Position numbers and translations under genes: made by a program
The notes under the pieces: generated by a model
What the model was told of the DNA's origin: nothing
Databases searched by the model: none
What the model saw: the letters and a program-made list of their open reading frames with translations, nothing else
In this document: one piece after another, positions 33,401 to 53,973 of the stretch
How the letters are laid out: each line of letters opens with the position of its first letter
Position numbering within the stretch: the stretch's first letter is position 1
NCBI GenBank assembly: GCA_039917895.1
Contig: JBDSIO010000219.1
Span: 78-64,077 of the forward strand
Length of the DNA stretch: 64,000 nt
Reading direction: 5' to 3'
From: Fibrobacteria bacterium
GTDB taxonomy: Bacteria > Fibrobacterota > Fibrobacteria > UBA11236

Positions 33401-34152
33401 CCGCCTTTGGAAGGCAGCATCACGATCTTACCGTCCTTTTCCGGAACCCGGAAAGGAGTCTTGTCGTGGATGGATGAGATCCAGAATACATAGGCGTAGG
33501 GGAATTCGTGTTGGGCGATATGGAAGCTGTCGTACTCGAACATTACGCGCGCCAGCTTCACGAATTCATGTCGCGGATCTTCCGGACCGATCACCTCCAC
33601 GGCCGCGTTGACCTGGAAGCTGATGTAGTCCGGGGCGTTGCCGGTATAGTGCAAAGCCGCCAGGGGCGTGGCCGAGATATTCCTGAAGGTGGTCTTTTCG
33701 AAAATCTCGAGGCTGCTCAGCGATCGGTAGTCGACCTTCTCCCGATCGAAATAGAAGCTGGAAACGGCTTTCAGCCTTTCCTGCAACGATTCCTGCCAGG
33801 GACGGCCGCGGGTGCGTTCAATCGTCTCCTTGAACAGGTTGACGTAGGATTCCAGGTATTCCCGCTTGGGCAGGAAGCCCACGCCTTTGTTGCCGCAATT
33901 GAACGGAAAGGTCTGGCCGCGCGCCTGGGTGATCATCACGGGCAGGTGCGAAGTGAAAAAGGCGGGATTCCCCTTTCCCAACAGCTTGTCGTACATGGCG
34001 CGGCGGCCTTGTTCGATCCACTCTATGTACCGCTCCGGCAGGCTTTCCATCGGCAGGTCGACCGGTCCCTCGGCCAGTTCCACGCGAAGGCGATCTCCTG
34101 CGACTACGACCTTGGGCAGGCCCTGAAATTGTCTGGCCGTATTCTGCTGCAT
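30499..34152 (-). CDS. 1217-aa multidomain protein: N-terminal ~270-aa unknown domain, six PCP_red-like repeats (protochlorophyllide-reductase ChlB C-terminal-domain-like), tandem universal stress protein (Usp) domains, two rubredoxin-like zinc ribbons, and Ala-rich and His-rich linkers
   Basis: Repeats of the form (L/M)xW(T/E)xEAxxRLxR(V/I)PxFxRxxxxxxxExxAxxxGxxxITxExxxxA occur six times (e.g. VSWTTEAKARMQRVPAMAQNMAMKAIQNYCVAEGHTVVTESILNA; PAWTEDAVKRLERVPDGFMRKAAKNMVEEHALNSGTKEITLEVAEAG). The Usp motifs are IYVGLDSS...GAHGVGRVGNSQLGTVAERMLRR and IIVCLDGS.... The zinc ribbons are CQACGHVHHG...CPICG and CHLCG...CANCG. There is an HGHIHAHGVNPHAHG His-rich segment. Confidence 0.7.
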   Translation of the reverse strand: MQQNTARQFQGLPKVVVAGDRLRVELAEGPVDLPMESLPERYIEWIEQGRRAMYDKLLGKGNPAFFTSHLPVMITQARGQTFPFNCGNKGVGFLPKREYLESYVNLFKETIERTRGRPWQESLQERLKAVSSFYFDREKVDYRSLSSLEIFEKTTFRNISATPLAALHYTGNAPDYISFQVNAAVEVIGPEDPRHEFVKLARVMFEYDSFHIAQHEFPYAYVFWISSIHDKTPFRVPEKDGKIVMLPSKGGMEWEPEAIESINRAPGMIRQFITEQIEKYAKGRGFTRITMELMKEAREVLERPKDAGTATAATLEAAAATAPSAPSAIAAAAAPATVTAIAAEAAEAVPATVPSFQAPGSHPDGEAAPKAVDWKYSRIYVGLDSSVPSNEAMRTAMLIGKREGARMIGSHVYAAKMHDNRFRAMEGGLPEEFQKEKELNRQRKIHDSLITKGLELITDSYLEAMSGACKTDNLEFAAVSLEGKNWKAMAEDIAANDYDLVALGAHGVGRVGNSQLGTVAERMLRRVRRDVLLTRMSVEENVSDTIIVCLDGSIRSWGGLQRAMRLAKTLDKKVLAVSAFDPYFHYAMFKSLNKTLTEKARKVFKFEEQEKLHEDIIDSGLAKIYQSYLNIAKRLAEEAGVAIEIRLLDGKPFEKILQLVKAEPPWLLVVGRIGFHSDEDMDIGGNTENLCRLAPCNILVVDSKAKPPVEFQAEETVSWTTEAKARMQRVPAMAQNMAMKAIQNYCVAEGHTVVTESILNAALKTLLPPAALARMGIVDTDEGKERDSHDKIALSFKCQACGHVHHGSRPQSCPICGMGGHMFKLLESAIVSEGQSLETLGDRQLMWEKSALALLEKSGDATVTAQIRNRLEKRALTQRITAVTLEMVEAELRAAGIGAAPTAVPTTADLAPAAPVSAAEAAPGAISSDAFGGPAWTEDAVKRLERVPDGFMRKAAKNMVEEHALNSGTKEITLEVAEAGLGKAREKMHASMTGSGQGDPGAHGHIHAHGVNPHAHGQGANPHAATPSADPARTSAQASATPEASDASEIAPWECHLCGIILDGAKPTVCANCGTGHFVRLSAEKRAQAKSSAFKTLAWKPEALQRLERVPEGFMRTMTRCRVEKWARAGGADVVDLEIMDGKYGSWGDGSAKMAPELEWSEAATARTSRIPDFIRPMVMKEIERRAKGEGRTRVDAADIDQAMTHWSASGNFHGHG

Positions 34153-34203: not shown

Positions 34204-35493
34204 CTATTTGAAATGGAAGCCGAGTTCGGCTTCCCGTTCGCGCTTATGGCGCGTCATCAATTCCGGAGTTACGGGTACGCCTTCGGTCCGGGCCCGCGCC
34301 TCCAACTTCCGTTTCACCACCGGCCTCAGGAACAACGGCAGCTTGGACAGCCGTTCCCGCGCTTCGGGGGTCCATACGACTTCCGTGTCCCCGTCCGGTT
34401 TCCGCACCGGTATGATCGCGCCCCCGGCCGGCTCGTATTCACAGCTGGGGTCTTCCGCCATGAGATTTCCCTTGGCCAGGGATCGGGCCCGGCAGCCCCC
34501 GCACACCAGCTTGTATTCGCAACCGCCGCAACGGCCCTCCAGCAGGGCCGGATTGCGCATGGAGGCCAGCAGCACCGAGTCGTCCCAGATCTTCCAGAAA
34601 CCGTCCCGTCGTACATTCCCGGCGGAAAGTTCCATGTACGGGCAAGGGGTGATCTCCCCTTTGGGGGTGATGCGGCAATAATGGCTGCCCGCCAGGCAAC
34701 CGCCGCCGTCGTAACCTTCGGCGCGCGTGTAGGGCGATGCGGGATCGGCTTGATGGAGGATGCGCTTGAAATGGGGCGTGCAGCGCGTTTGCACCAGGAT
34801 GCCTTTGGCCGTGGGTTGGATGGCGGCGATTTCCTTGAGCGCGGCTTCATATTCCGCGGCCGAGAGATCCATGGAGCCTTCGCCCCGGCCCACGCAGACC
34901 AGGAAGAAGAAATTGATGATGGACGCGCCGAGTTCGCGGGCCATGTCCACGGCTTGCGCAATCTCGCTCCGGTTCCATCGCGTTATCGTGAAGTGGATCT
35001 GGGCATGCATGCCGGCCGCGCGGCAATGTTTTACCGCCTCGCAAGTCCTGGCGAAAGCGCCGGGCATGCCCCGGAAAGAATCGTGGGCGCCGGGACGGAT
35101 GGAGTCCAGGCTGATCCCCATGCCTTCCAGGCCCGCCGCCCTGAGTTCCTCCGCGCGCTTGCGGTTCACCAGCACCCCGTTCGTGCCCAGCACCATCCGC
35201 AGACCCGCCTCCACTCCGGCCTTGACGAACCCGTCCAGGCCCGGATGCAACAGGGGTTCGCCTCCGGTGAGCACGATGATGGTACCCGGCGCCCGCGCGC
35301 CGATGTCGCGGAACAGGGATGCGACCTCCTCATCGGCCATCTCCCCGTCCATGACCGACGCCCGTTGGGTGGCGTCCATATAACAATGGGCGCAATTCAG
35401 GTTGCAACGCCGGGTCAGGTTTACGGCCACCAGGTACGGTTCAAACTCCCGCTCCCCGCGCCGTTCTTCCTTTTTTCCCGTTTCCATCGGCAA
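34204..35493 (-). CDS. Radical SAM / SPASM-domain enzyme (AhbC/NirJ/PqqE-like) with a C-terminal PCP_red-like domain
   Basis: CNLNCAHCY (CxxxCxxC). The SPASM Cys-rich region is GGGCLAGSHYCRITPKGEITPCPYM...CGGCEYKLVCGGCRARS. The C-terminal VVWTPEARERLSKLPLFLRPVVKRKLEARARTEGVPVTPE matches the repeat family in the adjacent 1217-aa protein. Confidence 0.75.
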   Translation of the reverse strand: MPMETGKKEERRGEREFEPYLVAVNLTRRCNLNCAHCYMDATQRASVMDGEMADEEVASLFRDIGARAPGTIIVLTGGEPLLHPGLDGFVKAGVEAGLRMVLGTNGVLVNRKRAEELRAAGLEGMGISLDSIRPGAHDSFRGMPGAFARTCEAVKHCRAAGMHAQIHFTITRWNRSEIAQAVDMARELGASIINFFFLVCVGRGEGSMDLSAAEYEAALKEIAAIQPTAKGILVQTRCTPHFKRILHQADPASPYTRAEGYDGGGCLAGSHYCRITPKGEITPCPYMELSAGNVRRDGFWKIWDDSVLLASMRNPALLEGRCGGCEYKLVCGGCRARSLAKGNLMAEDPSCEYEPAGGAIIPVRKPDGDTEVVWTPEARERLSKLPLFLRPVVKRKLEARARTEGVPVTPELMTRHKREREAELGFHFK

Positions 35494-35524: not shown

Positions 35525-36241
35525 TTAATACTCGAAGGCGACTTTCGCGTCCTTGCCCGCTTCCACCTTCACCTGCACGGTTTTCGCGCCCAGGGCCTCA
35601 TGCCAGATCTTCAACGTATAGGTTCCCGCGGGCACGTCGGCCAATATGAACTCCCCGGCCGGTCCGGTCACCGCCGCGTAGGGATGCGGCAAGGCCCAGA
35701 TGTATCCCTGCATGAAATCATGGGCATCGCACTCCACCGAGATCAGGCCTTCCTTGCGGAGGATTTTGGTGTTTTCCACGACCTGGCCCTTCTTAGGCAG
35801 CGCCATGTTGATCAGGTTCTTCTTGGCCGCGCCGTCCACCAGGTAGAAGTGCGAATTGTGGAGCATGTCGTCGTCGTTGCGCACTTTCAGGGTCGCGCCC
35901 ACCGGGGCCACAAGTACGTGGGGAGTGAACTTGCAATTGGTGTTGTCGTAGAAGATTTCGCCTGCCGCGGCTTTCTTGCCTTCCGCAATCTTGTCGATCA
36001 TCACCACGGCGAATTGGAGGCCGCCGCCCGCTCCCGTCACGTATTTTTGGGCCGCGATCTTGGCGCCGCACTGCTCCGGATTCTTGCTGACCACTTTCAT
36101 CTCGTCCGCCGGGGCCTTCCCTTTGATCTTGATGGCCCCGCTGATGCTGCCGCCGTTGGCGACGGCGATCTCCTTGTATTGCGCCGAGGCCGCCACGGCT
36201 CCGGCCAGCATGAACGCGCATAAGGTATTGATGGTTTTCAT
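35525..36241 (-). CDS. Periplasmic cupredoxin-like (type 1 copper) protein
   Basis: Signal peptide MKTINTLCAFMLAGAVAASA (RBS AACGGAGGA before the ATG at 36241). Candidate copper ligands are H in MLHNSHF and the C-x2-H-x2-M motif (VECDAHDFMQG), as in amicyanin/pseudoazurin. Confidence 0.5.
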   Translation of the reverse strand: MKTINTLCAFMLAGAVAASAQYKEIAVANGGSISGAIKIKGKAPADEMKVVSKNPEQCGAKIAAQKYVTGAGGGLQFAVVMIDKIAEGKKAAAGEIFYDNTNCKFTPHVLVAPVGATLKVRNDDDMLHNSHFYLVDGAAKKNLINMALPKKGQVVENTKILRKEGLISVECDAHDFMQGYIWALPHPYAAVTGPAGEFILADVPAGTYTLKIWHEALGAKTVQVKVEAGKDAKVAFEY

Positions 36242-36281
36242 TTCGATCCTCCGTTTTGGGATGGGTTTTCCATGGCTGGGC

Positions 36282-37394
36282 TCAGAAGAAGACATGCAGC
36301 CTTCCCACGATCTGGTTCTGGTTGTCCGCCGTGCTCTGAGGTATCCAATCGTTTTTCCGGTAATACAATCCCACCTGCAGGAATTGCATGATGAAGGGTT
36401 CGACGCCTACCACCACGCGGGTCTGATTGCTTTGCGCCTGGGGGATTGCCGTATTGCGCCAGAAGGACTCGTAGGTGACCTTGAAATTAAGTCCCTGCAT
36501 GGGCAGGAAGTCGACCTCGGTGTAGTCCTCGACCTTGTCGATGCCCTCATCCTTGGTGTAGTCGCGCTCCCCCAGGATGGTGAACATGCCCAAGGTGGTG
36601 CCGGCGAAAACGCCGTAAGATCCTTTGGTTTCCTTGAATTCCTTGGTAAGTTCCTTACTGTAGGAACCGCCCAGCCTGACGGTGCGCAGCACGGGCACTT
36701 CCCTGAACACGAAGGAGCCGACGCTCATCCATTTGGTCTGGGTGATGGAACTGACCAGGGACAGCGGCCCGGGTTCGAATCCCATTTCGTATGCCAGGGC
36801 CGTGGAACTGTAAGTGTAGCCGGTGAAGTTGCGCACGAAGGCATCATCGTCCATGAGCCGGTATCCGTATGGAAGCAGCATCTGGCCGAATTTCAAGTAG
36901 CTGTTGGCGGGCAGGGAAATCATGCTCCAGAGTTCGCGGAAGCCGCCTGCGGACATGTCCTTGTCGTAGTAAAGCTTCAACCGATCCTTGATCAGATCCA
37001 TCTCCACGTATAGGTTCTTCTCCTTGAAGGTGCCGGCGTTCCAGTTCCCCTCCACCATGCGCGCCGAATCCCCGGGGTTGGCGGGTTTGGTGGTGAACTG
37101 GCGGAGATACGCCTGTTCGATGCGGAAATTCGCACCCAGGGAGACGGAGTTGTTCAGCTTCGGATCGAAGGAATTGAGGTTCTTCTGCGCGAGTGTGGAA
37201 GCCACCAGCAGCTTGTATTGCGTATACACCTCTCCGAACTCGGTCCGCTTGCCGCCCCCCGTCCGGTTTACGTGGCATTGGCTGCATTTGAATCCCGTTC
37301 GGACGGCGATATAGGGCTCGGCGGAAACCAATCCGGTGGCCAGCAGGAACACGATCGCGATAGGTTTCCAGGGCATTGACGTTGACCGTTGCAT
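36282..37394 (-). CDS. Fused monoheme cytochrome c / outer-membrane beta-barrel (Cyc2-like cytochrome-porin)
   Basis: Signal peptide. A single CSQCH motif within about 15 residues of the predicted mature N-terminus. The remaining ~330 aa form alternating amphipathic beta-strands ending ...GRLHVFF (C-terminal Phe). This architecture matches Cyc2-type iron oxidases. Confidence 0.45.
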   Translation of the reverse strand: MQRSTSMPWKPIAIVFLLATGLVSAEPYIAVRTGFKCSQCHVNRTGGGKRTEFGEVYTQYKLLVASTLAQKNLNSFDPKLNNSVSLGANFRIEQAYLRQFTTKPANPGDSARMVEGNWNAGTFKEKNLYVEMDLIKDRLKLYYDKDMSAGGFRELWSMISLPANSYLKFGQMLLPYGYRLMDDDAFVRNFTGYTYSSTALAYEMGFEPGPLSLVSSITQTKWMSVGSFVFREVPVLRTVRLGGSYSKELTKEFKETKGSYGVFAGTTLGMFTILGERDYTKDEGIDKVEDYTEVDFLPMQGLNFKVTYESFWRNTAIPQAQSNQTRVVVGVEPFIMQFLQVGLYYRKNDWIPQSTADNQNQIVGRLHVFF

Positions 37395-37402
37395 ATCCGC
37401 GC

Positions 37403-38134
37403 CTAGTTCCTTCCCGTGATCCAGGTTTTAATGGTTTGGATGTCCTCGTCGGAGAGGGGCGCCGCCGCTTCGGCCGGCATCCTTACGCCGTAGGGCGGGG
37501 TCGCCTTGAAGATCTTCAGGAACAGGTAGCTGCTGTCCGGTACCCCCGGCAGCACCCGCATCATATTGATGTTTTTTACCGTCAGCATCTCGATCGACTT
37601 GATGTTGACCAGGCTGTCCCACGCCGCGCCCGATTCCAGAGTCAGCCTGGTTTGCATAAATCCGGTGCCGCCGGGCTTGATGTGGCATTTCTCGCAATGG
37701 GTCTTGAAGATGGGCAGCACGTTGGCCGTGAAAAAAGCCCGGTCCAGGCACTCCACCGGCTTGGGGAGCCTGGAACAATCGATGCAGCGCGAGGGAGGAT
37801 TGGGGAGTAGGCAAGAGTCCACTGCCACGCAACGCGCGGGAGGATTGGGCAAAGCGCAGGAATCGGGCACAGCGCAGCGCGCGGGGGGATTGGGGAGCAG
37901 GCAAGAATCCACCGCCAGGCAACGCGCGGGAGGATTGGGCAGAGCGCAGGAATCGACGACGCAGCCGGCTGAGGCGGGATTCGCGATGCAGGGATTCGGC
38001 TTGATGAGAGCTCCGCCGGCGGTCAGACCCACGCCGTCTCCGGCTTTCATGCAGGCGATGAACAGGGCGGGAATAACGATGGCAGCCGCCAGCAGTCGGG
38101 ATTTCCCGCGCAGCCCTTGTTGCAAGCGGTTCAT
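37403..38134 (-). CDS. Lipoprotein c-type cytochrome with five tandem Cys-containing 14-15-aa repeats
   Basis: Lipobox (ALFIAC). Repeats DSC(A/L)LPNPPARC(L/V/A)AV occur five times, followed by a class I cytochrome c domain with CEKCH. It overlaps the downstream cytochrome gene (ATGA-type coupling at 38131-38134). Confidence 0.6.
   Translation of the reverse strand: MNRLQQGLRGKSRLLAAAIVIPALFIACMKAGDGVGLTAGGALIKPNPCIANPASAGCVVDSCALPNPPARCLAVDSCLLPNPPARCAVPDSCALPNPPARCVAVDSCLLPNPPSRCIDCSRLPKPVECLDRAFFTANVLPIFKTHCEKCHIKPGGTGFMQTRLTLESGAAWDSLVNIKSIEMLTVKNINMMRVLPGVPDSSYLFLKIFKATPPYGVRMPAEAAAPLSDEDIQTIKTWITGRN
37790..37975. repeat. Coding tandem repeat (~42-45 nt unit, 5 copies) inside the lipoprotein cytochrome gene
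   Basis: Repeated cgcgcgggaggattgggcaaagcgcaggaatc-like units are visible on the + strand and encode the Cys-Pro-rich peptide repeats. Confidence 0.6.
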
Positions 38135-39153
38135 GGCGTCACCTCCGTGTCTTTCGTGAACAGGATGAAAAAGGGATTCGGCTTACGGATCAGGGAGCGG
38201 ATGTAATGGACCAAGGCCCATTTCCTTTTTTCCCCAAGGGCGTTCCGCTGTTCGGCCGGCATTTTTTGCAACGCTGCTTCCGTCGGTTGGGTGAGCAGCC
38301 AAGCCTGCAACTGATCGATTTCGGCGGCCGGATAGGCTTCCTTGTACTTGACCGGATCCACCGTAGCGTCTCCGGAAATGAGGAAACCGTCGAGAGCGTA
38401 GGCGGGCATGGGCGTGCCGTTGAGGCCGGTGGTGAAGGTGCGGTACAGGGTCCCGGCGTCGTTCCCCGCCTTGTAGCGATACGCGGTCAGGTTCCAGGGG
38501 AGGATTTTGCGGCCCCAGTCATCGTCCAGGGTCTTACCGGATTTCCCATCGCCTTTGCCGGAGCCGCCGTGGCAGGCCCAGCATTCCATCAGCATGTACA
38601 CCAGCTTGCCCTCCTTTACCGCTTGCGGAGTACTCTCGGGAACCGCGGGAACCTCCATGGGGGAGGGCGCGCCTTCCTTGAAATCCGGAGAAAAAGTCTT
38701 GAGGAAGGCGACCACGTCCAGGCGCTCCTGCAGGGTAAGAGTCGTCCCCCAGGCCGGCATCTGCGTTCCCGGAACCCCTTTTTCCACGATGGCCAGCAGA
38801 TCCGCATCGGTGGGCAGCTCTCCGCTCGGGGTCGAACGGAATTTGAACATGCCCGCGGTGAAATCGCGCGGCCGCGGATTCAGGTATTGGCCCGCGGCGC
38901 TCCGGCCGTCGCCGTTTTCGCCATGGCAGGCCGCGCAGGATTTGGAGTAGACGGCTTCGCCCCGGGACAGGGAAGGCGATGACAAAGCCGCCTGGGCGGG
39001 CCCGGAGGCGGCGCTTGCCCCGTGTAATGCCACGATGGCGGCAAAACCGATCGCCCGCGAAAGACGGCCGGACAGGTTGAGGGGATAGGCATTCAAGATG
39101 TACCTCCCGTTTCTCTCATTCATGGGTGGATACCACATCAAATTCCATACCAT
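38131..39153 (-). CDS. Periplasmic diheme c-type cytochrome
   Basis: Signal peptide. CAACH and CWACH motifs. Alternative starts at 39138/39123. Confidence 0.65.
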   Translation of the reverse strand: MVWNLMWYPPMNERNGRYILNAYPLNLSGRLSRAIGFAAIVALHGASAASGPAQAALSSPSLSRGEAVYSKSCAACHGENGDGRSAAGQYLNPRPRDFTAGMFKFRSTPSGELPTDADLLAIVEKGVPGTQMPAWGTTLTLQERLDVVAFLKTFSPDFKEGAPSPMEVPAVPESTPQAVKEGKLVYMLMECWACHGGSGKGDGKSGKTLDDDWGRKILPWNLTAYRYKAGNDAGTLYRTFTTGLNGTPMPAYALDGFLISGDATVDPVKYKEAYPAAEIDQLQAWLLTQPTEAALQKMPAEQRNALGEKRKWALVHYIRSLIRKPNPFFILFTKDTEVTP

Positions 39154-39312: not shown

Positions 39313-40845
39313 CTAACGCTTGGATGCGGCGGCGCGCCTGCGCAGGAACCAGATGAGACCGGCTTCCAGCACGATGGCCAGGGCGGCCCGCTTCGAAGCC
39401 GGGGCCAGGGGATTCTCCGCGCGGGCCGGCTTCAGGTACAAGGTAAACCAGGAGGTTACCCCACGGGAGCTGCCCGTCTCGCGCGACAATCCGTCCCAGA
39501 CGGAAAAAGCGATGGGCGCGAAGCCTCCGGGCTCGAAGGCATACCGTCCAGGCTCGGACCGTTTGCGCGTGAACACGGCCCACCATTCCCCGTCCGCATA
39601 ACCCGCGTCGACGCTGATCGTTCCGGGAATCCGCGCCAGGTTTCCCGCGCCCTTAGCCGCATAAACCTCACCCGTATCCGTGCCGAGATCGCGGAACCAG
39701 AGCTCGGCGGGATTCCGCTTGTCGCCGGAAAGGAAGTAGGGTTTACCCGCCCCTTCGATGGCCTTGCCGGGAATCTGAATGGCGATGGCATCGGAAAATA
39801 CCGCCCCGGAATCGCTGCCGGCCGCGTCAATGGGACTATTGGCGCCTTTGCGTTGCGCGCTCATATCGTGCCAGGAGACCAGCACGGAAACGTAGTCGCT
39901 ATCGTAAACGGCCCTCACCTCCACGGCGTTGGCCGCTGGAAAGAAATCCCTGCGCGCTTCGATCACCTGGCCGACCACGGGGAACAAGGCCGGCTTCGCA
40001 CGGGTGAAGGCGTCTCGCCCCGGCTTGGATCCCAATTCGCCGGGAACGGCCTCGGCCGTCACCAATGAAGCGTATCCGGGTTCGTCGCCGGGACTCAGCG
40101 AATGGATGTAGTCGACCAAGGCCCAGCGATCCTTTTCCTCGATGGAGGCCGTGTAGCTGGGCATTGGCGTGCCGTTGAGCCCGGTCATGATGGTGCGGAA
40201 GATATCCTCGCGCCGGGGCCCGCCGCGGAAGGTCCAACGCCGCGTCAGATCCGCGGGCCGGATGGCGTGGCCCCAATCGTCGTTCAGGGTCGGTGCGGAC
40301 TCCCCGTCGCCGCGGCCCAGCTTGCCATGGCAGTCCATGCATTTGTTCTCGACGAAGAGTTTGCTGCCCCGCTCCGCCGATTCCTTGCTGAAAGCCGGAG
40401 GCTTAACAGCGGCGATGGGTTTGGGGTGGTTGGCGGTATCGGCGAAATCGGAATTGAAGCCCTTGATGAAGGCGACGAGATCGCCAAGCTCTTCTTCGGA
40501 AAATTCCGGCCAGGCCGGCATACCCGTATAGGGCATGCCGCTCCGGATGATGGATTTCAGATCCGCATCGGTGGGAGATTCCCCGCTTTCCGTGGTGCGG
40601 ATTTTGAACGATCCCGAGGTGAAATCGCGCGGCAGCGGCCGGAAGAACTCCGCCCCGTCCCCCTTGCCCTCGCCGCCCGTACCATGGCATTGGGAGCACT
40701 TGTCCAGGTAGATGGCCTTGCCCGCCGCGGCCCGGGCATCCGTAGCCGGCGCGTCCGCCGCGCGCGCAATGGGAGCGTAGGAAAGCGCGGCCGAGATCAC
40801 ACCCGCGAGGGCGAGGGTAGCGGAAAGCCTGCGATGGGTATTCAT
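39313..40845 (-). CDS. Membrane-anchored diheme cytochrome c fused to an EB_dh-like heme-b domain (NxrC-like gamma-type subunit)
   Basis: Signal peptide. CSQCH and CMDCH motifs. The C-terminal half has EB_dh-like segments (VRAVYDSDYVSVLVSWHD..., AIAIQIPGK, PYFLSGDKRNPAELWFRDLG, FSVWDGLSRETGSSRGVTSWFTLYL). A C-terminal TM helix AALAIVLEAGLIWFLRRR follows. Confidence 0.55.
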   Translation of the reverse strand: MNTHRRLSATLALAGVISAALSYAPIARAADAPATDARAAAGKAIYLDKCSQCHGTGGEGKGDGAEFFRPLPRDFTSGSFKIRTTESGESPTDADLKSIIRSGMPYTGMPAWPEFSEEELGDLVAFIKGFNSDFADTANHPKPIAAVKPPAFSKESAERGSKLFVENKCMDCHGKLGRGDGESAPTLNDDWGHAIRPADLTRRWTFRGGPRREDIFRTIMTGLNGTPMPSYTASIEEKDRWALVDYIHSLSPGDEPGYASLVTAEAVPGELGSKPGRDAFTRAKPALFPVVGQVIEARRDFFPAANAVEVRAVYDSDYVSVLVSWHDMSAQRKGANSPIDAAGSDSGAVFSDAIAIQIPGKAIEGAGKPYFLSGDKRNPAELWFRDLGTDTGEVYAAKGAGNLARIPGTISVDAGYADGEWWAVFTRKRSEPGRYAFEPGGFAPIAFSVWDGLSRETGSSRGVTSWFTLYLKPARAENPLAPASKRAALAIVLEAGLIWFLRRRAAASKR

Positions 40846-41654
40846 TCCGCGCGCTCCTGGGCCCTGGGTTTCTGCCCCGTGAACCGGTAGAGGAATAGGA
40901 TGACGTCCCAGATTTCATCCTCGGAAAGGAATTTCTCCCAGGCCGGCATCGCCGAGGCCCAAGGAGTAGACTCTTCGGGAAGGCCCGGACCTCCCTTCGC
41001 GATGCGCCAGAAGAGGTAGGACTCCTGCAACATGGCGATGGTGGTGGGATCCTGGAAATTGGCGGGCAGGGGATCGAAGCCGTGGGAATGGATGCCGTCC
41101 CCTTTCAGGTTGTCCCCGTGGCAGAACACGCAGTTCCGGTAATACACCTTGCGGCCGTCCGCCACGTGCGCGTCGAAGGCCGCCGCATCCTTGTCCTCCA
41201 GCTCCCGAAAGGGATTCGACGCCGTGAGCAGGTTGATCTTCTTGCCCTTGAAATCCATCTCCCCCGGCGGGGCGGGATGGATGGTGCGCGCATTTGCCGG
41301 GGCCGCCACCTCCCGCGAGGCGTCTCGGTAGGCCGCGTAGCCGGCCAGCAAAGGGATGATCGCGGCCAAGGTCCAGAGCAACGGGGCGAAACGCCGTTCC
41401 GTAAAGAAGCGCAGCAGGGCAAGCGAAGCCGTGCGCAAGCGTCCCGAATCCGCCGAGAGATAGATGAGCAGCACGGCCGTGAGCACGGCCAGGTATAGGC
41501 CGATGATGGACGAAGGCAGCGGCGGCGTCAACGCGTAATTCAAGACCAGGAAGAATCCCGACCACCAGGCCCCCATCCAGACGAGGATGGGCGGCTTCAG
41601 GAAGCGCAGTCCTATCAGCACCAGCAGAACGGGCCCGAGTATCAGCAGGTTCAC
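40842..41654 (-). CDS. Polytopic membrane protein with a C-terminal monoheme cytochrome c domain
   Basis: Four predicted TM helices followed by CVFCH. Its start overlaps the upstream gene's stop and its stop overlaps the downstream gene's start. Confidence 0.6.
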   Translation of the reverse strand: MNLLILGPVLLVLIGLRFLKPPILVWMGAWWSGFFLVLNYALTPPLPSSIIGLYLAVLTAVLLIYLSADSGRLRTASLALLRFFTERRFAPLLWTLAAIIPLLAGYAAYRDASREVAAPANARTIHPAPPGEMDFKGKKINLLTASNPFRELEDKDAAAFDAHVADGRKVYYRNCVFCHGDNLKGDGIHSHGFDPLPANFQDPTTIAMLQESYLFWRIAKGGPGLPEESTPWASAMPAWEKFLSEDEIWDVILFLYRFTGQKPRAQERAE

Positions 41655-42469
41655 CGCTTCCCCCTTTGCGCGGAAAGGTACGCGACCATGGCCTTGATGT
41701 CCCCGGCGGAGGTCTTGTCGTAGAATCCCGATGCCTTGAGCGTATTGGCCATCAGGCCCTTGGGATATCCCTTGGGCGTTACCGCATCCGGATCCATGAT
41801 GGATTCGGAGATCAGGCTGGGTTTGAGACGCTTGCCGACATCGAAGAGACTGGGGCCCACCAGCTTGCCGGGCTGATCCAGCCTATGGCAACCGGCGCAT
41901 CCGTTAACGGTCAACAACTCCTTGGCGGTCCTGGGGACCGTGGTTGCCGCGGAAGCGGCCGGGGCGGCCGGACCATCATTTGCGACCGTACCGGAGGGCG
42001 AAAACGCGTGACGGGTCAGCATAGTGACGTTCGGCGTACCGCCCAGGCTTTGCAAGTAGGCGATCACGGCCATGATTTCCCCGTCGGAAAGATTGATGGG
42101 CGGCCCATGGATGGGGGGCATGCCGGGGCTGTAGCCTTCGACGATGAAAGCGTTGGGTTCGTAGATGGACTGGGCCAGGTACTCCACATCCGACATTCCC
42201 GGCCTTTGCTTGCCGGCGCGGGCGCCGATGCCGCCCAGATCCGGGAACCGCCCGGGCTTGTCCGATCCGATGGTATGGCAGCCCAGGCAGGTGCCCTTAC
42301 CGCCCACGATTTCCTGGCCGGCCTGGACCAGGTCATCCGTGGTCATGTCCGCACGTACCTCCAGATCCTTGGGAGGGTGGACCTCCTTCTGCGGGACCAT
42401 CTGCCCGATGTAGGCGTAGAACGCCGTGACCAGCACGGTGAAGAGGATGATCTTCAATACGTTGATCAT
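41651..42469 (-). CDS. Membrane-anchored diheme c-type cytochrome
   Basis: This is the real 272-aa gene embedded at the C-terminal end of the artifactual 695-aa track ORF. It starts MINVLKIILFTVLVTAFYAY (TM helix), then CLGCH and CAGCH. Its ATG at 42469 overlaps the upstream gene's TGA (ATGA). Confidence 0.6.
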   Translation of the reverse strand: MINVLKIILFTVLVTAFYAYIGQMVPQKEVHPPKDLEVRADMTTDDLVQAGQEIVGGKGTCLGCHTIGSDKPGRFPDLGGIGARAGKQRPGMSDVEYLAQSIYEPNAFIVEGYSPGMPPIHGPPINLSDGEIMAVIAYLQSLGGTPNVTMLTRHAFSPSGTVANDGPAAPAASAATTVPRTAKELLTVNGCAGCHRLDQPGKLVGPSLFDVGKRLKPSLISESIMDPDAVTPKGYPKGLMANTLKASGFYDKTSAGDIKAMVAYLSAQRGKR

Positions 42470-44520
42470 GGCGCCGCCTCCTTCCCCGTGTCCCAATCCT
42501 TGCGGCCCGAAAGGCTGGTGAGCCAGAAGACGATGGAGATGAAGGCGAAGAAGATCAGCACCGTCACCGACACCACGATGGAGGCGAACCCCAGGGTGGG
42601 CGTGAAGGCGTCGACGGATTCGTCCCGCATCACCCCGTAGACGTGCCAATGCTGGCGGATGCCGGAGCGGACGTAGCCCATCAGCCCCATCAGCCAGGTG
42701 AAGGTGATGGCGATGAGGATCAGCGCGTATTGCGAGCGCATCGGCATTTTCCCCCAGCGGATTTCGCCCGTGGTGCGCGCGTTGCGGAACATGAAAATGT
42801 CGATGACGGTCACGGAGATCATGGCCGTGAGCACCGAAGCGACCTGGGGGACGGAAAGCCGGATGCGCACCTTGGCTTCCACGAAATAGCCCAGCACGCC
42901 CAGGGCGATCACAAAGAGCGCGGTGAGGGCGAAAATCAGGAACTGGGCCAGGTTGCCTTTGGCGGCCCAAGGCGCGATGGATCGCTTGTTGCCCCGGCGG
43001 TAGAGCAGGAAGCTGACATAGGTGGTCAGGATCAGGATGTTCACGGCGGTGTTCTTGGCCGACATCACTCCCAGCACGCCCAGGGCGGGATGATGCGCGC
43101 CGCCCATCTTGCGCGCCTCCTCCACGGTAGCCACCAGGGAATGCGGCGTCGCCCACACCAGGAAGCACACCGTGATCGAGCCCAGCAGCCATTTGATGAA
43201 CTTGCGGAAGCGTTCCGCCCCTTCGATGCGTTCCATGCCCAGCCACAGGTAATAGTTGGCGGCCAGGAACAGGGTGCCGATCAACACCGCCTGGATGATG
43301 AAAAGCCAGGAGAAAGCGCCGCCCATCAGGGTCATGCCCATGTTCTGGGAATAGGCGTAGATCTCCTTGCCCAGCCAATACCCCGCGAAAGGCAGCGGGA
43401 GCAGGGCGCTGATGGCGATGAAGTTTCCGATGTACCCCATCCAGTCGTAATGGGCCCGTTCCTCGTCCGTCTTGGCCCCCATGAACTTGAAAGCGCCGTA
43501 AGCTCCCGCGATGGATCCGCCGAAGGCGATATTGGCGATCAGACGATGCACGTTGATGGGCATCCAGGTGAAGTTGTGCACCGCCTGCCAGCGGTTGACC
43601 AGTTCGCCCGACTGGGTGATTCCATTGGGGGAATTCATGAAGGTGAGCCACGCATCCGCGATGCAGATGATGGCGACCCCGACCAGGTTGAGGCAGACGC
43701 CGAGGGCCAGGTGCACGCGCGGATGGAACTTTCCCCAACCGTAATAGTAGGCGTACATGAAGATGGCCTCGGCGAAGAACAGGGCTACATAAGGCATGAA
43801 GGTCCAGCTGAAGATGGAGACCAGGTAGGCGGTCAGTTTGGGATACAGAATCAGTAGCATAAAGGTGAGCATCGCGCCCAGGGAGGCCGTGAACGAAAAG
43901 GACGTGGACAGCAGCTTGGTGAATTCATGGGCGAGATGATCGTATTTGCGATCCTTGGTGCGGTACCCGATGTATTCGATGGTCAAGGCGAACATGGGCA
44001 CCGCCAGCACGAAGGCGGCGAACATCAAATGCAGCTGGGCCACGATCCAGATGGCCACGCGGCTGCCGATGACCGGGAACCTGCGGTAAGCGGGTTCGGA
44101 GCCGGGTTTGGTATTCGCGTAAACCTTGGGCGGCTGCGCAACCGGCGCGCCTGGAGCATGGGCCTTGAGTATCCAGGTCACGATGGTAGTGATGTCCTCG
44201 ATGGAAAGCGCGGGATGGGCCGGCATGGGCACGGCGCCCCAGGCCCCCGCGCCTCCGGCATGCACCTTTTCCGCCAATCGGGCGATGTCGGCCGTACCGT
44301 ATTTCGCCGCGATTTCCTTGAAGGCGGGTCCCACCACCTTATGGTCCGGCTGATGGCACACGAGGCAATCGCTCTGCTTCATCAATTCCTGGGCATTCTG
44401 GGCCTTCTGGGCCTTCACGGCCTCCTCACCCCCTGCCGGCGCGGCTCCGAGACACAGCAACGCCAACAGCGCCGCCAACCGCCAAGCAAAGCGTTTCCGG
44501 CGGATGATTCCCTGATCCAT
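42466..44520 (-). CDS. Cytochrome c551/c552-like domain fused to a cytochrome bd-like (CydA-related) polytopic membrane protein; putative novel terminal oxidase or quinol-interacting module
   Basis: 684 aa. Signal peptide. CLVCHQPDHKVVGPAFKEIAAKYG...IVTWIL is a class I cytochrome c domain. At least 12 TM helices follow, similar to the cytochrome bd subunit I family. It is the first gene of the array. Confidence 0.65.
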   Translation of the reverse strand: MDQGIIRRKRFAWRLAALLALLCLGAAPAGGEEAVKAQKAQNAQELMKQSDCLVCHQPDHKVVGPAFKEIAAKYGTADIARLAEKVHAGGAGAWGAVPMPAHPALSIEDITTIVTWILKAHAPGAPVAQPPKVYANTKPGSEPAYRRFPVIGSRVAIWIVAQLHLMFAAFVLAVPMFALTIEYIGYRTKDRKYDHLAHEFTKLLSTSFSFTASLGAMLTFMLLILYPKLTAYLVSIFSWTFMPYVALFFAEAIFMYAYYYGWGKFHPRVHLALGVCLNLVGVAIICIADAWLTFMNSPNGITQSGELVNRWQAVHNFTWMPINVHRLIANIAFGGSIAGAYGAFKFMGAKTDEERAHYDWMGYIGNFIAISALLPLPFAGYWLGKEIYAYSQNMGMTLMGGAFSWLFIIQAVLIGTLFLAANYYLWLGMERIEGAERFRKFIKWLLGSITVCFLVWATPHSLVATVEEARKMGGAHHPALGVLGVMSAKNTAVNILILTTYVSFLLYRRGNKRSIAPWAAKGNLAQFLIFALTALFVIALGVLGYFVEAKVRIRLSVPQVASVLTAMISVTVIDIFMFRNARTTGEIRWGKMPMRSQYALILIAITFTWLMGLMGYVRSGIRQHWHVYGVMRDESVDAFTPTLGFASIVVSVTVLIFFAFISIVFWLTSLSGRKDWDTGKEAAP

Positions 44521-44865: not shown

Positions 44866-44920
44866 ATTGCAAGGCGGACCAAGTTGCAAGGCGGACCAAG
44901 TTGCAGGACCAAGTTGCAAA
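44866..44920. repeat. Direct repeat array, four copies of (A)AGTTGCA(A) / GGACCAAGTTGCA, in the divergent intergenic region
   Basis: The sequence reads tTTGCAAGGCGGACCAAGTTGCAAGGCGGACCAAGTTGCAGGACCAAGTTGCAAAACG. The TTGCA half-sites are spaced 17, 17 and 13 bp. The array lies upstream of nnrS and on the far side of the cyt c-bd-like operon promoter region. Confidence 0.5.
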
Positions 44921-49993: not shown

Positions 49994-50776
49994 TTAGAAG
50001 TCCTTCTTCTCCAGCCGTCGGAAAAACCAGACGGTCGGCAGCGCGACCCAAAGGGTGAGGGCTCCCAGCGCGGTGGTGATTCCCAGGGTGGTCCCGAAGA
50101 ACCTCCGGAACACCGCGCCGGTATATCCCAGCAGCACGGAGGCGTCCAACTGCATCAGCACCAGGATACGTTCCAGGTCCACGGGATTGAGCAGGATAGC
50201 GCCGATGGTGAACCGGTCCAGAGGGTAATCAGAAAAACTGGTCAGGATGAAAAGCAATCCGCCGTCGTACAGGAATACCATGAACAGCCACAGGACCAGG
50301 CTGGTGGAAAATCCGCGCAAGCGATCTTCAACGGTCAGAGCGATCAGGAACGCCAGCGCCAGGAAACTCAGATGGAGCAGGATCCCGCCGCCCAGGAAAA
50401 TTACCAGCATCAGGATATCCGCGCCGCCGTGGAATCCCGCGGCCACGGTGGGAATCCCGAGCCCCAGTCCGAAAGCCAGGCTGAGCGCCAGCGATAGGGC
50501 GAGGCCTTGGCCGGCCAGCAGCGCCTTGCGGCTCACCGGTTGGGCCAGCATCAGCTCCTGGAACCCCCGGGACTGGTAGAAATACAAGGTTCCGAAAACG
50601 ATGGCGCACAAAGGCGCCAGGAACAGGACCAGGCTCAACAGGGCGCCCAATCCGGCGGAACTGGTGGTGGCGAACTGCATCAGTCCGTATCCCGCCGCCA
50701 GGTAGAAAAGGAAATACGCCCCGATGAAGCGGCTGCGGAAAAGGTCTTTGAGGCAGAACGCCAGCACGGCCCTCAC
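49994..50776 (-). CDS. nosY: ABC-2-type permease NosY
   Basis: 6-TM ABC-2 permease located after nosF. I call a GTG start at 50776 that overlaps the nosF stop (GTGA). The track ORF start at 51130 would overlap nosF by about 350 nt. Confidence 0.6.
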   Translation of the reverse strand: MRAVLAFCLKDLFRSRFIGAYFLFYLAAGYGLMQFATTSSAGLGALLSLVLFLAPLCAIVFGTLYFYQSRGFQELMLAQPVSRKALLAGQGLALSLALSLAFGLGLGIPTVAAGFHGGADILMLVIFLGGGILLHLSFLALAFLIALTVEDRLRGFSTSLVLWLFMVFLYDGGLLFILTSFSDYPLDRFTIGAILLNPVDLERILVLMQLDASVLLGYTGAVFRRFFGTTLGITTALGALTLWVALPTVWFFRRLEKKDF

Positions 50777-52865: not shown

Positions 52866-52870
52866 GGCCC

Positions 52871-53950: not shown

Positions 53951-53973
53951 GATTGTCCCTTAATCCTTTTCCT

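Follow-up and report, generated by a model that had tools for sequence, protein, structure and literature searches.

The gene at 42466-44520 on the minus strand of the window (the whole 64,000-nucleotide stretch of Fibrobacteria DNA analyzed here) encodes the haem-b membrane subunit of a predicted four-subunit complex linked to cytochromes c. We are confident, taking both points jointly, that the protein belongs to the OR-N2, or NIDE0901-type, family of bd-like oxidases and is coupled to cytochrome c. Its most likely function, to which we give an even chance, is that of a terminal oxidase fed by cytochrome c with O2 as the acceptor. This type of bd-like module has already been named and discussed from Nitrospirota genomes, a kinship that the initial annotation recognized only in part. 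New here are the fusion of a c551 domain to the membrane subunit, the spread of the module to at least six non-nitrifier phyla, its almost constant linkage to a NirJ/AhbD-like radical SAM enzyme and a multi-PCP_red protein, and the frequency of haem-copper oxidase genes among its neighbors.

A single ATG-to-stop open reading frame specifies 684 amino acids, 100% identical to a GenBank entry named 'cytochrome ubiquinol oxidase subunit I'. From N to C terminus the protein consists of an export signal, a c551/c552-type class I cytochrome c domain, about 30 residues of flexible linker and a membrane domain with the CydA fold. The initial annotation had described an exported c domain (CLVCH) fused to a bd-like part with at least 12 transmembrane (TM) helices, and this is borne out by the one reading frame, by Pfam matches to both parts and by the 13 TM helices found. 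Residues 1-30 (44431..44520; all features described below are likewise on the minus strand) were read directly from the translation and have a basic n-region (RRKR) and the hydrophobic core AWRLAALLALLCLGAAPAGG; they are predicted to serve as a cleavable signal peptide or else as an uncleaved signal anchor. In the AF2 model residues 4-23 are helical at low confidence, and an equivalent hydrophobic segment is present at the N terminus of unfused homologues. The route is presumably Sec, because c-type cytochromes are exported unfolded.

The cytochrome c domain (residues 41-120; 44161..44400) was identified with Pfam and phmmer. It matches Pfam Cytochrom_C over residues 41-119 (29.8 bits; cut-off 21.3), Hydrogenophilus cytochrome c-552 (2d0s) with a phmmer E value of 2.3e-21, and Pseudomonas c551 structures at about 1e-14. 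The haem-binding motif, C52-L-V-C55-H56 (CLVCH, residues 52-56; 44353-44367), lies near the start of the domain, the distal ligand M99 lies in a PMP-type motif (VPMPAHP), and the fold is the three-helix class I fold. C52, C55 and H56 are invariant in all 35 fused homologues and M99 is present in 34 of the 35. Since the N terminus is exported, the domain is predicted to hold its His/Met-ligated, c551-type haem in the periplasm. A Pro/Ala-rich flexible tether (residues 121-150; 44071..44160) joins it to TM1; residues 128-142 have a pLDDT below 50 and no predicted secondary structure in the AF2 model, and the spacing between CxxCH and the TM1 histidine ranges from 101 to 139 residues across homologues.

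The remainder of the protein (residues 151-684 plus the stop codon; 42466..44070) forms the membrane domain, with 13 TM helices, the N terminus outside and the C terminus inside. Residues 153-666 match positions 2-406 of the 418-position Pfam profile Cyt_bd_oxida_I (PF01654; 74 bits, E 1.2e-20, cut-off 26.2), and phmmer aligns the bd-like part with CydA of M. smegmatis bd-II (E 8e-15) and Geobacillus (E 1.5e-11). The AF2 model (pLDDT 83, pTM 0.76) has 13 TM helices. This significant CydA-profile match, the CydA fold and an equivalent of His19 place the domain in the cytochrome bd superfamily; the possibility, raised in the initial annotation, that it might better match an unrelated transporter family did not materialize. 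By sequence, solved CydA structures align only over TM1-TM6, with alignments ending at about residue 388, and TM7-8 (402-456) and TM10-11 (519-577) are insertions relative to CydA. Neither sequence alignments nor the AF2 model show a Q-loop or quinol-site signature between TM6 and TM7; in the model the Q-loop position is taken by a helical hairpin (402-456) and His-rich loops, which may yet harbor a non-canonical quinone site.

The alignment of haem ligands called for by the initial annotation shows the equivalents of His19, His126, His186, Met393 and Glu107 to be kept, and Glu99 and Glu445 to be replaced. Aligned by hhalign and HMMER, E. coli CydA H19 corresponds to H164; the other E. coli positions fall at Y244 (E99), E251 (E107), Y258/Y260 (F114/F116), H270 (H126), H325 (H186), M486/N490 or M399 (M393) and S619 (E445; S or A across the clade), and the GRQPW motif corresponds to R622-Q-H-W625-H626. 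H325 together with M486 or M399 would thus ligate the low-spin haem b558, H164 is the predicted ligand of the high-spin active-site haem, and E251 and H270 are the putative proton-path residues. H164, E251 and H270 are invariant in 119 close relatives; among 24 distant relatives they are kept in 22, 18 and 24, respectively. The His19 equivalent is kept in every subfamily of the superfamily (Murali et al. 2021, 10.1101/2021.01.16.426971). Glu99 of canonical enzymes serves in a proton path, or as a haem d ligand in Geobacillus, and Glu445 is a haem b595 ligand in E. coli; since both are replaced, the three-haem active site cannot be the canonical one. A search for CuB-type histidines, likewise proposed at the outset, found additional conserved histidines facing the periplasm. 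H460, H476/H477 and H624/H626 are conserved in 117-119 of the 119 close homologues, are shared with the Nitrospirales protein described below and fall in periplasmic loops by topology. They are candidates for the 'CuB-type' residues of the Nitrospira literature, in which such a site was proposed for NIDE0901 by Lucker et al. 2010, as cited in PMC6606698 and PMC12342949.

That the database name is right, and that this is an ordinary cytochrome bd ubiquinol oxidase subunit I, has next to no chance of being true. The name is carried by the protein and its homologues in GenBank and IMG, and the PF01654 match is consistent with it. We reject it on the grounds that no CydB is encoded nearby, that there are 13 rather than 9 TM helices, that the Q-loop, Glu99 and Glu445 are replaced and only TM1-TM6 align, and that the protein carries a c-type haem domain in the same chain and has cytochromes c as its obligate partners (63 of 63 loci).

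Kinship with the bd-like proteins of Nitrospira and anammox bacteria, as first suggested from the sequence, is upheld by the closest comparison. A NIDE0901-type Nitrospirales protein (L086:14540-16369), in an OR-N2 gene neighborhood, is 49% identical to the query over 548 amino acids with 6 gaps (481 bits), and downstream of its gene come those for two cytochromes c and an EB_dh protein, in the same order as here. An OR-N1-type neighbor that sits with Rieske and cytochrome b genes (P0298) is 35% identical (312 bits), and sequences that we take to be other Nitrospirota bd-like types are 30-39% identical. The diagnostic OR-N2 pattern in Table S6 of Murali et al. is H19=H, E99=Y, E107=E, F114/F116=Y/Y, H126=H, H186=H, M393=M/N, E445=S/A and W441=W, and the corresponding residues here are H164, Y244, E251, Y258/Y260, H270, H325, M486/N490, S619 and W625; a Gly at the E107 position sets OR-N1 apart in the same table (10.1101/2021.01.16.426971). 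In all, 10 of the 14 positions in the OR-N2 row match, two are conservative hydrophobic swaps and two are uncertain. The swaps are at the S140 and N148 positions, I284 and L292 here versus L and I in the OR-N2 reference, all hydrophobic; the L71 and E74 positions have no confident placement, and G215 is one residue off the expected Gly. Spacing between the diagnostic residues fits the reference save for indels of about four residues in two loops. The count of about 14 TM helices given for OR-N2, obtained by prediction in that paper, is reached here by the 13 helices of the AF2 model plus the N-terminal hydrophobic segment. In OR-N2 operons an EbdC homologue accompanies several cytochromes c, and a second cydA-like gene is often missing (10.1101/2021.01.16.426971); this is the arrangement in the window and in 63 related loci. 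Our placement is by identity, residue pattern and gene order rather than by the authors' HMM classifier or tree. OR-N2 (10.1101/2021.01.16.426971) is equivalent to NIDE0901-like or 'bd-like_2' (PMC6606698, PMC12342949) and to 'TO_1' of Ca. Manganitrophus (10.1101/2021.11.15.468770). Our literature search found no biochemical or structural papers on OR-N.

The missing cydB and the position of the gene at the head of a cytochrome array, both pointed out in the initial annotation, are confirmed: family profile searches of the window genes found no CydB match among the neighbors, and seven genes follow on the same strand, six of them with CxxCH. The first encodes a 272-residue dihaem cytochrome c (41651..42469) with an N-terminal TM anchor and CxxCH at 61 and 191, as assigned with Pfam and NCBIfam; its start overlaps the bd-like stop codon by 4 nt (ATGA), and it lies directly downstream of the bd-like gene in all 63 loci with enough flank. 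The second (40842..41654), overlapping the first by 4 nt (GTGA), encodes a 270-residue protein with a multi-TM N-terminal half and one cytochrome c domain (CxxCH at 175). The third (39313..40845), again with a 4-nt overlap (ATGA), encodes a 510-residue protein that starts with a signal peptide and ends with a TM anchor; between them lie two cytochrome c domains (CxxCH at 50 and 169) and an EB_dh domain for haem b, of the NxrC/EbdC type. The protein matches Pfam EB_dh (45.7 bits) and TIGR03477, its dihaem part matches Kuenenia 6h5l_B (E 6e-42), and it is the counterpart of the Nitrospirota 'alternative NxrC' or 'periplasmic cytochrome b'. These three coupled genes add five c haems, one EB_dh-type b haem and membrane anchors of their own. 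The 4-nt overlaps among the first four genes, together with the same gene order in 63 of 63 loci, lead us to predict a stoichiometric four-subunit complex.

Beyond the module lie three genes that are accessory to Fibrobacteria-type loci: one for a dihaem c (38131-39153), one for a monohaem c that resembles a lipoprotein and contains four C-x-LPNPP-x-RC repeats (37403-38134), and one for a 370-residue, possibly beta-barrel protein that has a single CxxCH and ends in Phe (36282-37394). A fourth accessory gene (35525-36295) encodes a 256-residue protein in which a CarboxypepD_reg domain is combined with a cupredoxin-like H...C-x2-H-x2-M motif. Only three loci (L002, L004 and L005) gave tblastn matches to all of the accessory genes (35525..39153); the cupredoxin-like protein is also found in a few other loci, 6 of 53 (for example L013, L053 and L082). 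Next comes a 429-residue radical SAM/SPASM enzyme of the NirJ2/AhbD group, which modifies tetrapyrrole side chains, with a C-terminal PCP_red domain (34204..35493). It matches Pfam Radical_SAM, SPASM and PCP_red, and scores 290 bits against both TIGR04055 and TIGR04545, under the 500-bit equivalog cut-offs of each; such a gene is downstream of the module in 35 of 53 loci, within the 10 kb seen. The gene after it (30499..34152) specifies a cytoplasmic protein of 1217 residues, in which five PCP_red and two Usp domains (Pfam) occur together with a rubredoxin-like motif. Multi-PCP_red proteins follow the module in 50 of 53 loci with at least 9.5 kb of flank, a linkage that holds across phyla, and those of L082, L084, L087 and L088 share the domain composition seen here.

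Module order is identical in 63 of 63 loci, from Fibrobacterota, Calditrichia, Rhodothermales, Acidobacteriota, Opitutales and Myxococcota. The N-terminal c551 fusion is present in 35 of 145 full-length relatives and is a trait of one sub-lineage, not of the whole family. One distant relative (P0152) has an N-terminal c551 fusion and branches away from the main group of fused proteins in the tree, and in P0121, P0124 and P0133 the bd-like protein is fused at its C terminus to the next cytochrome, which in P0121 is the counterpart of the downstream dihaem c. These independent natural fusions in other lineages strengthen the case for direct contact between cytochromes c and the bd-like subunit. 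The fusion supports electron exchange with cytochromes c rather than with quinol.

We propose a model where electrons from periplasmic donors, which may be soluble cytochromes, the cupredoxin-like protein or the nearby nitrite oxidoreductase (NXR), enter through the c haems. The tethered c551 domain would act as a built-in shuttle or entry haem, comparable to the c domain of caa3 oxidase. Electrons would pass onward to haem b558 and then to the H164 haem, where O2 would be reduced to water with cytoplasmic protons delivered via the E251/H270 path, and charge separation during O2 reduction would conserve energy. The linked NirJ/AhbD-like radical SAM enzyme and the PCP_red proteins may supply a modified haem, or insert it, at the H164 site.

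Three lines of evidence favor this oxidase reading. The equivalents of His19, Glu107 and His126 are invariant in the 119 close relatives; in about 21 loci the genes immediately upstream of the module encode A-type haem-copper oxidases, and in L087 the module follows ACIII and caa3 genes, the usual place of oxidase genes; and the Nitrospirota counterpart has been treated as the main oxidase in Nitrospira species without haem-copper oxidases and, as TO_1, reaches the 98th expression percentile in the aerobe Ca. Manganitrophus (10.1101/2021.11.15.468770). The oxygen affinity of OR-N was given as unknown as late as 2025. Counting against an oxidase are the substitution of Glu99 and Glu445, the cbb3 oxidase already encoded in the window, and the reported conservation of a related bd-like/two-cytochrome/alt-NxrC cluster in strictly anaerobic anammox bacteria, where a link of NXR to the quinone pool has been proposed. 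NXR genes near the module point the same way. About 4.6 kb past the cluster, on the strand that also carries it, the window encodes a Kuenenia-type NXR, comprising a full-length NxrA homologue with a Tat signal (927 bits against Kuenenia NxrA 7b04_B), an NxrB and a gamma subunit of the EB_dh type, and in a Gemmatimonadaceae locus (L082) NxrA/B-like, NarJ-like and c2EB paralogue genes lie immediately upstream of the bd-like gene.

These NXR genes also bring in the main, though somewhat unlikely, alternative, that of a quinone-coupled membrane module exchanging electrons between the quinone pool and periplasmic cytochromes c and, via the EB_dh subunit, an NXR-type molybdoenzyme. In this reading a site for quinol/quinone would persist in the bd-like subunit close to haem b558; electrons would run from quinol to nitrate (or to NosZ or cbb3) in this heterotroph, and in reverse in nitrite oxidizers. 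Such a role has been proposed for the bd-like_3/alt_NxrC_2 cluster, conserved among Nitrospira, Nitrospina and anammox bacteria, but the query is nearest to NIDE0901/bd-like_2, at 49% identity as against 30-39% for the presumed other types. The stretch after TM6, where the canonical quinol site lies, is highly conserved, with E386, Y388, Q392 and M399 invariant in the 119 close homologues; however, the Q-loop is replaced and the quinol-site signature is absent from OR-N (Murali et al. 2021, 10.1101/2021.01.16.426971). No complex III is visible within the window, which fits a quinone-coupled role, whereas in L087 the module stands behind a complete ACIII that already performs the quinol:cytochrome c step. 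Further, NXR genes are found within 10 kb of the module in only 2 of about 85 loci, and an invariant active-site haem ligand and proton-path residues would be needless in a simple electron-transfer anchor.

The genes around the module could also suggest that the complex acts on a nitrogen oxide (NO or nitrite) instead of O2, reducing or detoxifying it with a modified haem from the NirJ-like enzyme. We regard this as improbable. An nnrS gene diverges from the bd-like gene, an arrangement kept in loci L002, L003 and L088, and the window has denitrification-like surroundings: a Sec-type NosZ, NosD, NosF, a regulator of the Crp/Fnr family, a hemerythrin and another COX1-family gene, similar in size to NorB. 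However, the nnrS and nos adjacency is limited to Fibrobacteria-type loci, and most loci have aerobic respiratory genes beside them. The radical SAM enzyme scores equally for NirJ2, of the haem d1 pathway, and AhbD, but both scores are far under the equivalog cut-offs, and our analysis found no NO- or nitrite-specific sequence feature.

Returning to the terminal oxidase, it is tempting to speculate, though we think it doubtful, that the OR-N2 module is a third, widespread kind of cytochrome c oxidase in heterotrophs of at least six phyla, with a dedicated, modified tetrapyrrole at its active site that is made by the co-inherited radical SAM enzyme and handled by PCP_red proteins. If so, use of OR-N2 oxidases would reach ordinary heterotrophs, beyond nitrite and manganese oxidizers. 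In this genome, a periplasmic NXR of the Kuenenia/Nitrospira type and a NIDE0901-type oxidase would make up, on paper, a complete Nitrospira-style chain from nitrite to O2.

Among known systems, the caa3 haem-copper oxidases (with a c domain on subunit II) and cytochrome cy resemble this protein in tethering a class I c domain as a built-in carrier. However, their catalytic superfamily is unrelated, and here there is no CuA and the CuB site is only putative. Canonical CydA (E. coli 6RKO, Geobacillus 5IR6/5DOQ, M. smegmatis bd-II 9R2G) shares the N-out topology, the residues that ligate haem b558 and the His19 haem, Glu107, His126 and a GRQPW-like motif (RQHWH here), but the present protein has four extra TM helices, no CydB, a replaced Q-loop, Tyr for Glu99, Ser for Glu445 and a covalent c-type haem domain, and its partner would be cytochrome c rather than quinol. 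OR-C proteins (e.g. Desulfovibrio) are likewise CydA-like with haem c motifs, and cytochrome c is their proposed donor; they span the membrane with 8 helices, carry their haem c sites in a periplasmic extension at the C terminus, and have an OR-C1b paralogue as partner and Phe in place of His186 (10.1101/2021.01.16.426971). A CydA-like subunit and CxxCH share one polypeptide in both, but we reject OR-C membership given the 13 helices, the N-terminal c domain, the lack of a paralogue nearby and the retained His186 equivalent, H325.

The closest likeness is to OR-N2 itself: 49% identity in the membrane domain, operon partners that include two membrane-bound cytochromes c as well as a haem-b protein of the EbdC/NxrC type, the lack of CydB and Q-loop, and conservation of the extra periplasmic histidines. 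The differences are nonetheless several. The Nitrospirales protein lacks the N-terminal c551 domain, and the text of the OR-N2 paper (10.1101/2021.01.16.426971) contains neither 'fused' nor 'fusion' and does not mention such a domain. The host here is a Fibrobacteria metagenome-assembled genome, from a phylum scored as OR-N-negative in the phylum table of that paper, and there is no OR-N1 partner and no Rieske/cytochrome b gene near the locus. In addition, the EB_dh subunit here has two c haems as well, and the module is linked to the radical SAM and PCP_red genes, a linkage not seen in the Nitrospirales locus.

The bd-like gene (window 42466-44520, minus strand) is a single open reading frame of 684 codons with a GC3 of 0.85, the usual value for window genes, and its product is 100% identical to a GenBank Fibrobacteria MAG protein named 'cytochrome ubiquinol oxidase subunit I'. 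Residues 1-30 form an export signal (RRKR, then a hydrophobic stretch) and residues 41-120 a c551/c552-type class I cytochrome c (Pfam PF00034, 29.8 bits; phmmer E 2.3e-21 against Hydrogenophilus c-552, 2d0s, and ~1e-14 against Pseudomonas c551 entries). All 35 fused homologues have the haem site C52-L-V-C55-H56 unchanged, and 34 of them have the distal Met99 (motif VPMPAHP). A Pro/Ala-rich linker (residues 121-150), disordered in the AlphaFold2 model (pLDDT <50 for 128-142), leads to the membrane domain (residues 151-684), which matches positions 2-406 of the 418 in the Pfam Cyt_bd_oxida_I profile (74 bits, E 1.2e-20) and has 13 transmembrane helices in the model (mean pLDDT 83, pTM 0.76). 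The initial annotation, which had described a c551-like domain and a bd-like membrane part in one frame, with no cydB nearby and at the head of a series of cytochrome genes, is confirmed in all its elements. Both Pfam matches lie in the one frame, no neighbouring gene is CydB-like, and three cytochrome genes follow, each start overlapping the preceding stop by 4 nt (ATGA, GTGA, ATGA). It had also allowed for a better fit of the membrane part to an unrelated transporter family; the match is to Cyt_bd_oxida_I.

The bd-like subunit is co-produced with three cytochromes that have membrane anchors, all encoded on the same strand. The first is a dihaem cytochrome c (272 aa) anchored at its N-terminus, the second (270 aa) has several transmembrane helices and a single haem c, and the third (510 aa) combines two haem c domains with an EB_dh domain (EbdC/NxrC-type haem b) and is anchored at its C-terminus. 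A 159-nt gap separates these genes from those further downstream, which begin with another dihaem c. Beyond it lie a lipoprotein-like monohaem cytochrome c (37403-38134, minus strand) with four tandem Cys-bracketed Pro-rich motifs (C-A/L-LPNPP-A/S-RC) before its haem domain, a 370-aa secreted protein (36282-37394, minus strand) with a single CSQCH near the N-terminus and a C-terminal ...HVFF, and a 256-aa protein (35525-36295, minus strand) with a cupredoxin-like motif (H...ECDAHDFM) and a CarboxypepD_reg-like C-terminal domain. The 370-aa protein, which has no Pfam match, is possibly a haem-carrying outer-membrane beta-barrel. It is confined to Fibrobacteria-type loci, as is the lipoprotein-like cytochrome (L002, L004, L005); in two Gemmatimonadaceae loci (L082, L083) the equivalent of the 256-aa cupredoxin-like gene comes after the EB_dh cytochrome.

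Two further genes complete the neighbourhood. One encodes a radical SAM/SPASM enzyme (34204-35493, minus strand) that carries a C-terminal PCP_red domain and is closest to NirJ2 and AhbD, scoring 290 bits against each, which is below the equivalog cut-offs; the other encodes a 1217-aa protein (30499-34152, minus strand) in which five PCP_red domains are combined with two Usp domains and a rubredoxin-like motif. Both accompany the module across phyla (L082, L084, L087, L088 and most of L002-L081) and are missing from a Nitrospirales locus (L086). This association, of which we found no mention in the literature, suggests that the radical SAM and PCP_red proteins form a dedicated tetrapyrrole modification or delivery system.

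Gene order around the bd-like gene is strongly kept. The three cytochrome genes follow on the same strand, in order, at 63 of 63 loci with at least 4.5 kb of flank; where the flank reaches at least 9.5 kb, a downstream Usp/PCP_red protein is found on the same strand at 50 of 53 loci and a radical SAM gene at 35 of 53. Called-gene tables of four independent contigs agree in domain make-up. The P0145 homologue sits alone on a 6-kb contig and carries no neighbourhood information. A protein search yielded over 7,400 homologues, and a genome scan found a relative encoded in at least 578 species-level genomes. In that scan, membrane domains 68-79% identical to ours occur in Fibrobacterota, Calditrichia, Rhodothermales and other Bacteroidota, Acidobacteriota (Vicinamibacteria, Thermoanaerobaculia, Holophagales), Opitutales (Verrucomicrobiota) and Myxococcota; the protein search adds Gemmatimonadota, KSB1, Latescibacteria and Krumholzibacteria. 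Because such cross-phylum identity is unusually high for vertical descent, it suggests that the whole cluster may have spread horizontally between phyla.

An N-terminal CxxCH domain is present in 35 of the 145 full-length relatives retrieved, mostly from Fibrobacterota with a few in Rhodothermales-type genomes. A neighbour-joining tree built on the membrane domain puts these N-fused forms in one contiguous group with the exception of P0152, and a single origin of the main group is likely, although with midpoint rooting the group is a grade rather than a proven clade. P0152 (36% identity) has its own c551-like domain, with Lys at the position of the Met ligand, and its placement away from the main group suggests a separate fusion event, although the tree does not settle this. 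In unfused proteins a signal or anchor segment and a short linker occupy the place of the c551 domain, and no free-standing c551 gene was found within 10 kb at their loci. In three other homologues (P0121, P0124, P0133) the downstream cytochrome c is fused to the C-terminus. Since fusions occur at both ends and in different lineages, a Rosetta-stone argument indicates that cytochromes c are physical partners of the bd-like subunit.

The cytochrome bd superfamily has been split into qOR, the true quinol oxidases, OR-C and OR-N, and for the OR-N2 subfamily (NIDE0901-type bd-like oxidases) a residue is tabulated at each diagnostic E. coli position (Table S6 of Murali, Gennis and Hemp, bioRxiv 10.1101/2021.01.16.426971). 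HMMER alignments of the window protein to solved CydA span TM1 to just past TM6, and hhalign to E. coli CydA covers TM1-TM4 only (148 columns). The protein has short indels relative to the OR-N2 reference numbering, and offsets from that numbering were set motif by motif. Active-site haem ligand His19 corresponds to H164, haem b558 ligand His186 to H325, and the proton-path residues Glu107 and His126 to E251 and H270, all as in the OR-N2 reference. Phe114 and Phe116, of the proton-coupled electron transfer path, are Y258 and Y260 (reference Tyr, Tyr), and proton-path Glu99 is Y244 (reference Tyr). Ser140 and Asn148 are hydrophobic in both, I284 and L292 in our protein and Leu and Ile in the reference; the equivalents of Leu71 and Glu74 are not confidently placed, with G215 one residue off the expected Gly.

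Because the CydA alignments reach at most TM6, the equivalences of three further positions rest on motif spacing, judged against the published OR-N2 table, and on a match of RQHWH to GRQPW that is weak and not significant by itself (HMMER alignment to solved CydA, domain 3). They pair the haem b558 ligand Met393 with M486/N490 (reference Met/Asn, four residues apart), Glu445 of the haem b595 site with S619 (reference Ser or Ala), and Trp441, of the proton-coupled electron transfer path, with W625 (reference Trp). TM12, the loop R618-S619...R622-Q-H624-W625-H626 and TM13 would be the counterparts of TM8, the GRQPW loop and TM9 of CydA. In the model a helical hairpin (402-456) takes the place of the Q-loop, flanked by conserved periplasmic stretches (G-K/R-E386-I-Y388-x-Y-S-Q392...L-M399-G-G, T-P-H460-S, E468 and G-G-x-H476-H477-P); TM9 begins M486-S-A-K489-N490, and TM10-11 are a second inserted hairpin. 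Nearly all residues of these motifs are invariant in 119 close homologues and most are retained in 24 distant ones. H460, H476/H477 and H624/H626 are shared with the Nitrospirales protein and are presumably candidates for the 'copper-binding' residues mentioned for NIDE0901 (PMC6606698).

The window protein is a CydA-fold subunit that retains the low-spin haem b ligands and the His19-type haem ligand and has lost CydB, the Q-loop, Glu99 and Glu445. These and the preceding features rule out the ordinary quinol oxidase subunit of the database annotation, to which we give almost no credence. The model and the positive-inside rule place the N-terminus outside and the C-terminus inside, which puts the c551 domain on the periplasmic side, where canonical cytochrome bd has its three haems. 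In the lineage of the window protein a c551 haem is tethered in the periplasm.

We propose as the main reading, at roughly even odds, that the module is a terminal oxidase fed by cytochromes c, and O2 as acceptor is for us an equally balanced question. Electrons would pass from periplasmic carriers through the c haems and haem b558 to the H164 haem, where O2 would be reduced with cytoplasmic protons arriving via E251 and H270. Active-site and proton-path residues are invariant, and expression of the Nitrospirota counterpart is very high in aerobes whose other oxidases are missing or barely expressed (10.1101/2021.11.15.468770, PMC12342949, PMC6606698). The module also lies recurrently behind ACIII/caa3 genes. 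An A-type haem-copper oxidase operon is immediately upstream at ~21 loci (COX1/COX3 matches, L002-L088), one contig (L087, 1-9800) reads ACIII, SCO1, caa3, SCO1, bd-like module, and in the P0113 homologue the annotation gives oxidase subunit IV (COX4_pro) as a fusion partner. However, two canonical carboxylates are absent, the organism already has a cbb3 oxidase, and a related cluster is reported from anammox bacteria (PMC6606698).

That cbb3 oxidase, a fused CcoN-CcoO (4365-6578, minus strand) with CcoG at 2000-3547 (minus strand), belongs to what is, across the 64-kb window, a respiratory island. An NxrA homologue (22401-25880, minus strand; 1159 aa, Tat motif SRRSFIK) aligns end to end with Kuenenia NxrA (7b04_B, 927 bits) and is followed by NxrB and an EB_dh gamma subunit (20397-22397, minus strand); MoeA/MoaA and a Crp/Fnr-type regulator (listed with 16340-18571 and 27356-28288, both plus strand) flank these genes. 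A periplasmic NXR-type molybdoenzyme is complete in this Fibrobacteria MAG. On paper, this enzyme and the NIDE0901-type module make a full Nitrospira-style chain from nitrite to O2; a role as periplasmic nitrate reductase is equally possible for the enzyme. Neither bc1 nor ACIII genes were found among the scanned window open reading frames.

The NXR neighbourhood, seen here and in a Gemmatimonadaceae locus (L082) with NxrA/B-like genes directly upstream of the module, is what would be expected if the bd-like subunit were a quinone-coupled anchor connecting the quinone pool with NXR and further periplasmic enzymes, a role proposed in the literature (PMC6606698). Conservation of the post-TM6 stretch and the structural resemblance of the subunit to ActF/PsrC fit such a role, but NXR lies within 10 kb at only 2 of ~85 loci and the L087 cluster includes a complete ACIII, and we regard the anchor as unlikely. 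The window also holds a hemerythrin, an NnrS family gene (44901-46175, plus strand) divergent from the bd-like gene, a Sec-type (clade II) NosZ with NosD and NosF (50773-56040, minus strand) and a second COX1-family gene of NorB-like size (61697-63025, plus strand; 442 aa). The divergent nnrS is retained in L002, L003 and L088 and not outside Fibrobacteria-type loci. This local Fibrobacteria context is the sole basis for reading the module as a nitrogen-oxide reductase using a NirJ-made haem, which we consider improbable.

Nitrospira are the most widespread nitrite oxidisers, and OR-N bd-like proteins are thought to be their main oxidases. To our knowledge none of these proteins has been characterised, because their hosts grow poorly, and we found no structure or assay of any bd-like oxidase in the literature. 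The natural cytochrome c fusions at either end point to cytochromes c as direct partners of the subunit and make its function easier to test, and the occurrence of the four-gene module, 70-78% identical, in hundreds of species (Rhodothermales, Acidobacteriota, Gemmatimonadota, Opitutales and others) may offer faster-growing hosts for biochemistry than nitrifiers, although all related loci retrieved come from metagenome-assembled genomes. The near-constant linkage to a haem-modifying radical SAM enzyme is a concrete, testable lead on the active-site cofactor. The finding is not categorically new, since family, operon type and oxidase hypothesis are already published; what we did not find in the literature is the c551 domain fused at the N-terminus, the parallel fusions at the C-terminus, so wide a spread of the module among non-nitrifying phyla, with Fibrobacterota among them, or its frequent position beside haem-copper oxidase operons. 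The fusion alone would not astonish a specialist, but together these observations make bd-like oxidase function and cofactor more directly testable. They also expose a systematic mis-annotation, in which OR-N2-type genes carry the database name 'cytochrome ubiquinol oxidase subunit I'.

We are highly confident of the family assignment and of coupling to cytochromes c. The Nitrospirales contig L086 shows the textbook order, in which Rieske and cytochrome b genes accompany a first bd-like gene and next come a second bd-like gene of 610 aa, two cytochromes c and an EB_dh protein. The window protein shares 49% identity with the second of these bd-like proteins (548 residues, six gaps) and 35% with the first. 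The second type has been called NIDE0901-like OR-N2 (PMC12342949), bd-like_2 (PMC6606698) and the TO_1 core (10.1101/2021.11.15.468770). With operon type and residue pattern, this comparison makes OR-N2 membership well supported by sequence. OR-N proteins, named for Nitrospirota, are without a quinol site; OR-N2 members have 14 helices, and their operons contain an EbdC homologue as well as several cytochromes c and often lack a second cydA-like gene (10.1101/2021.01.16.426971), which is the arrangement of the window locus. The same study scores Fibrobacterota OR-C-positive and OR-N-negative in its phylum table, gives a per-genome table that does not show which genes lie behind the score, and describes OR-C as having 8 helices and haem c sites in a C-terminal extension. 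Raised by this score and by the haem c motif, OR-C membership is ruled out by helix number, c-domain position and His186, where OR-C has Phe and the window protein H325. The window protein likewise differs from OR-N1, which has Gly at the Glu107 position and sits with petA/B/D genes.
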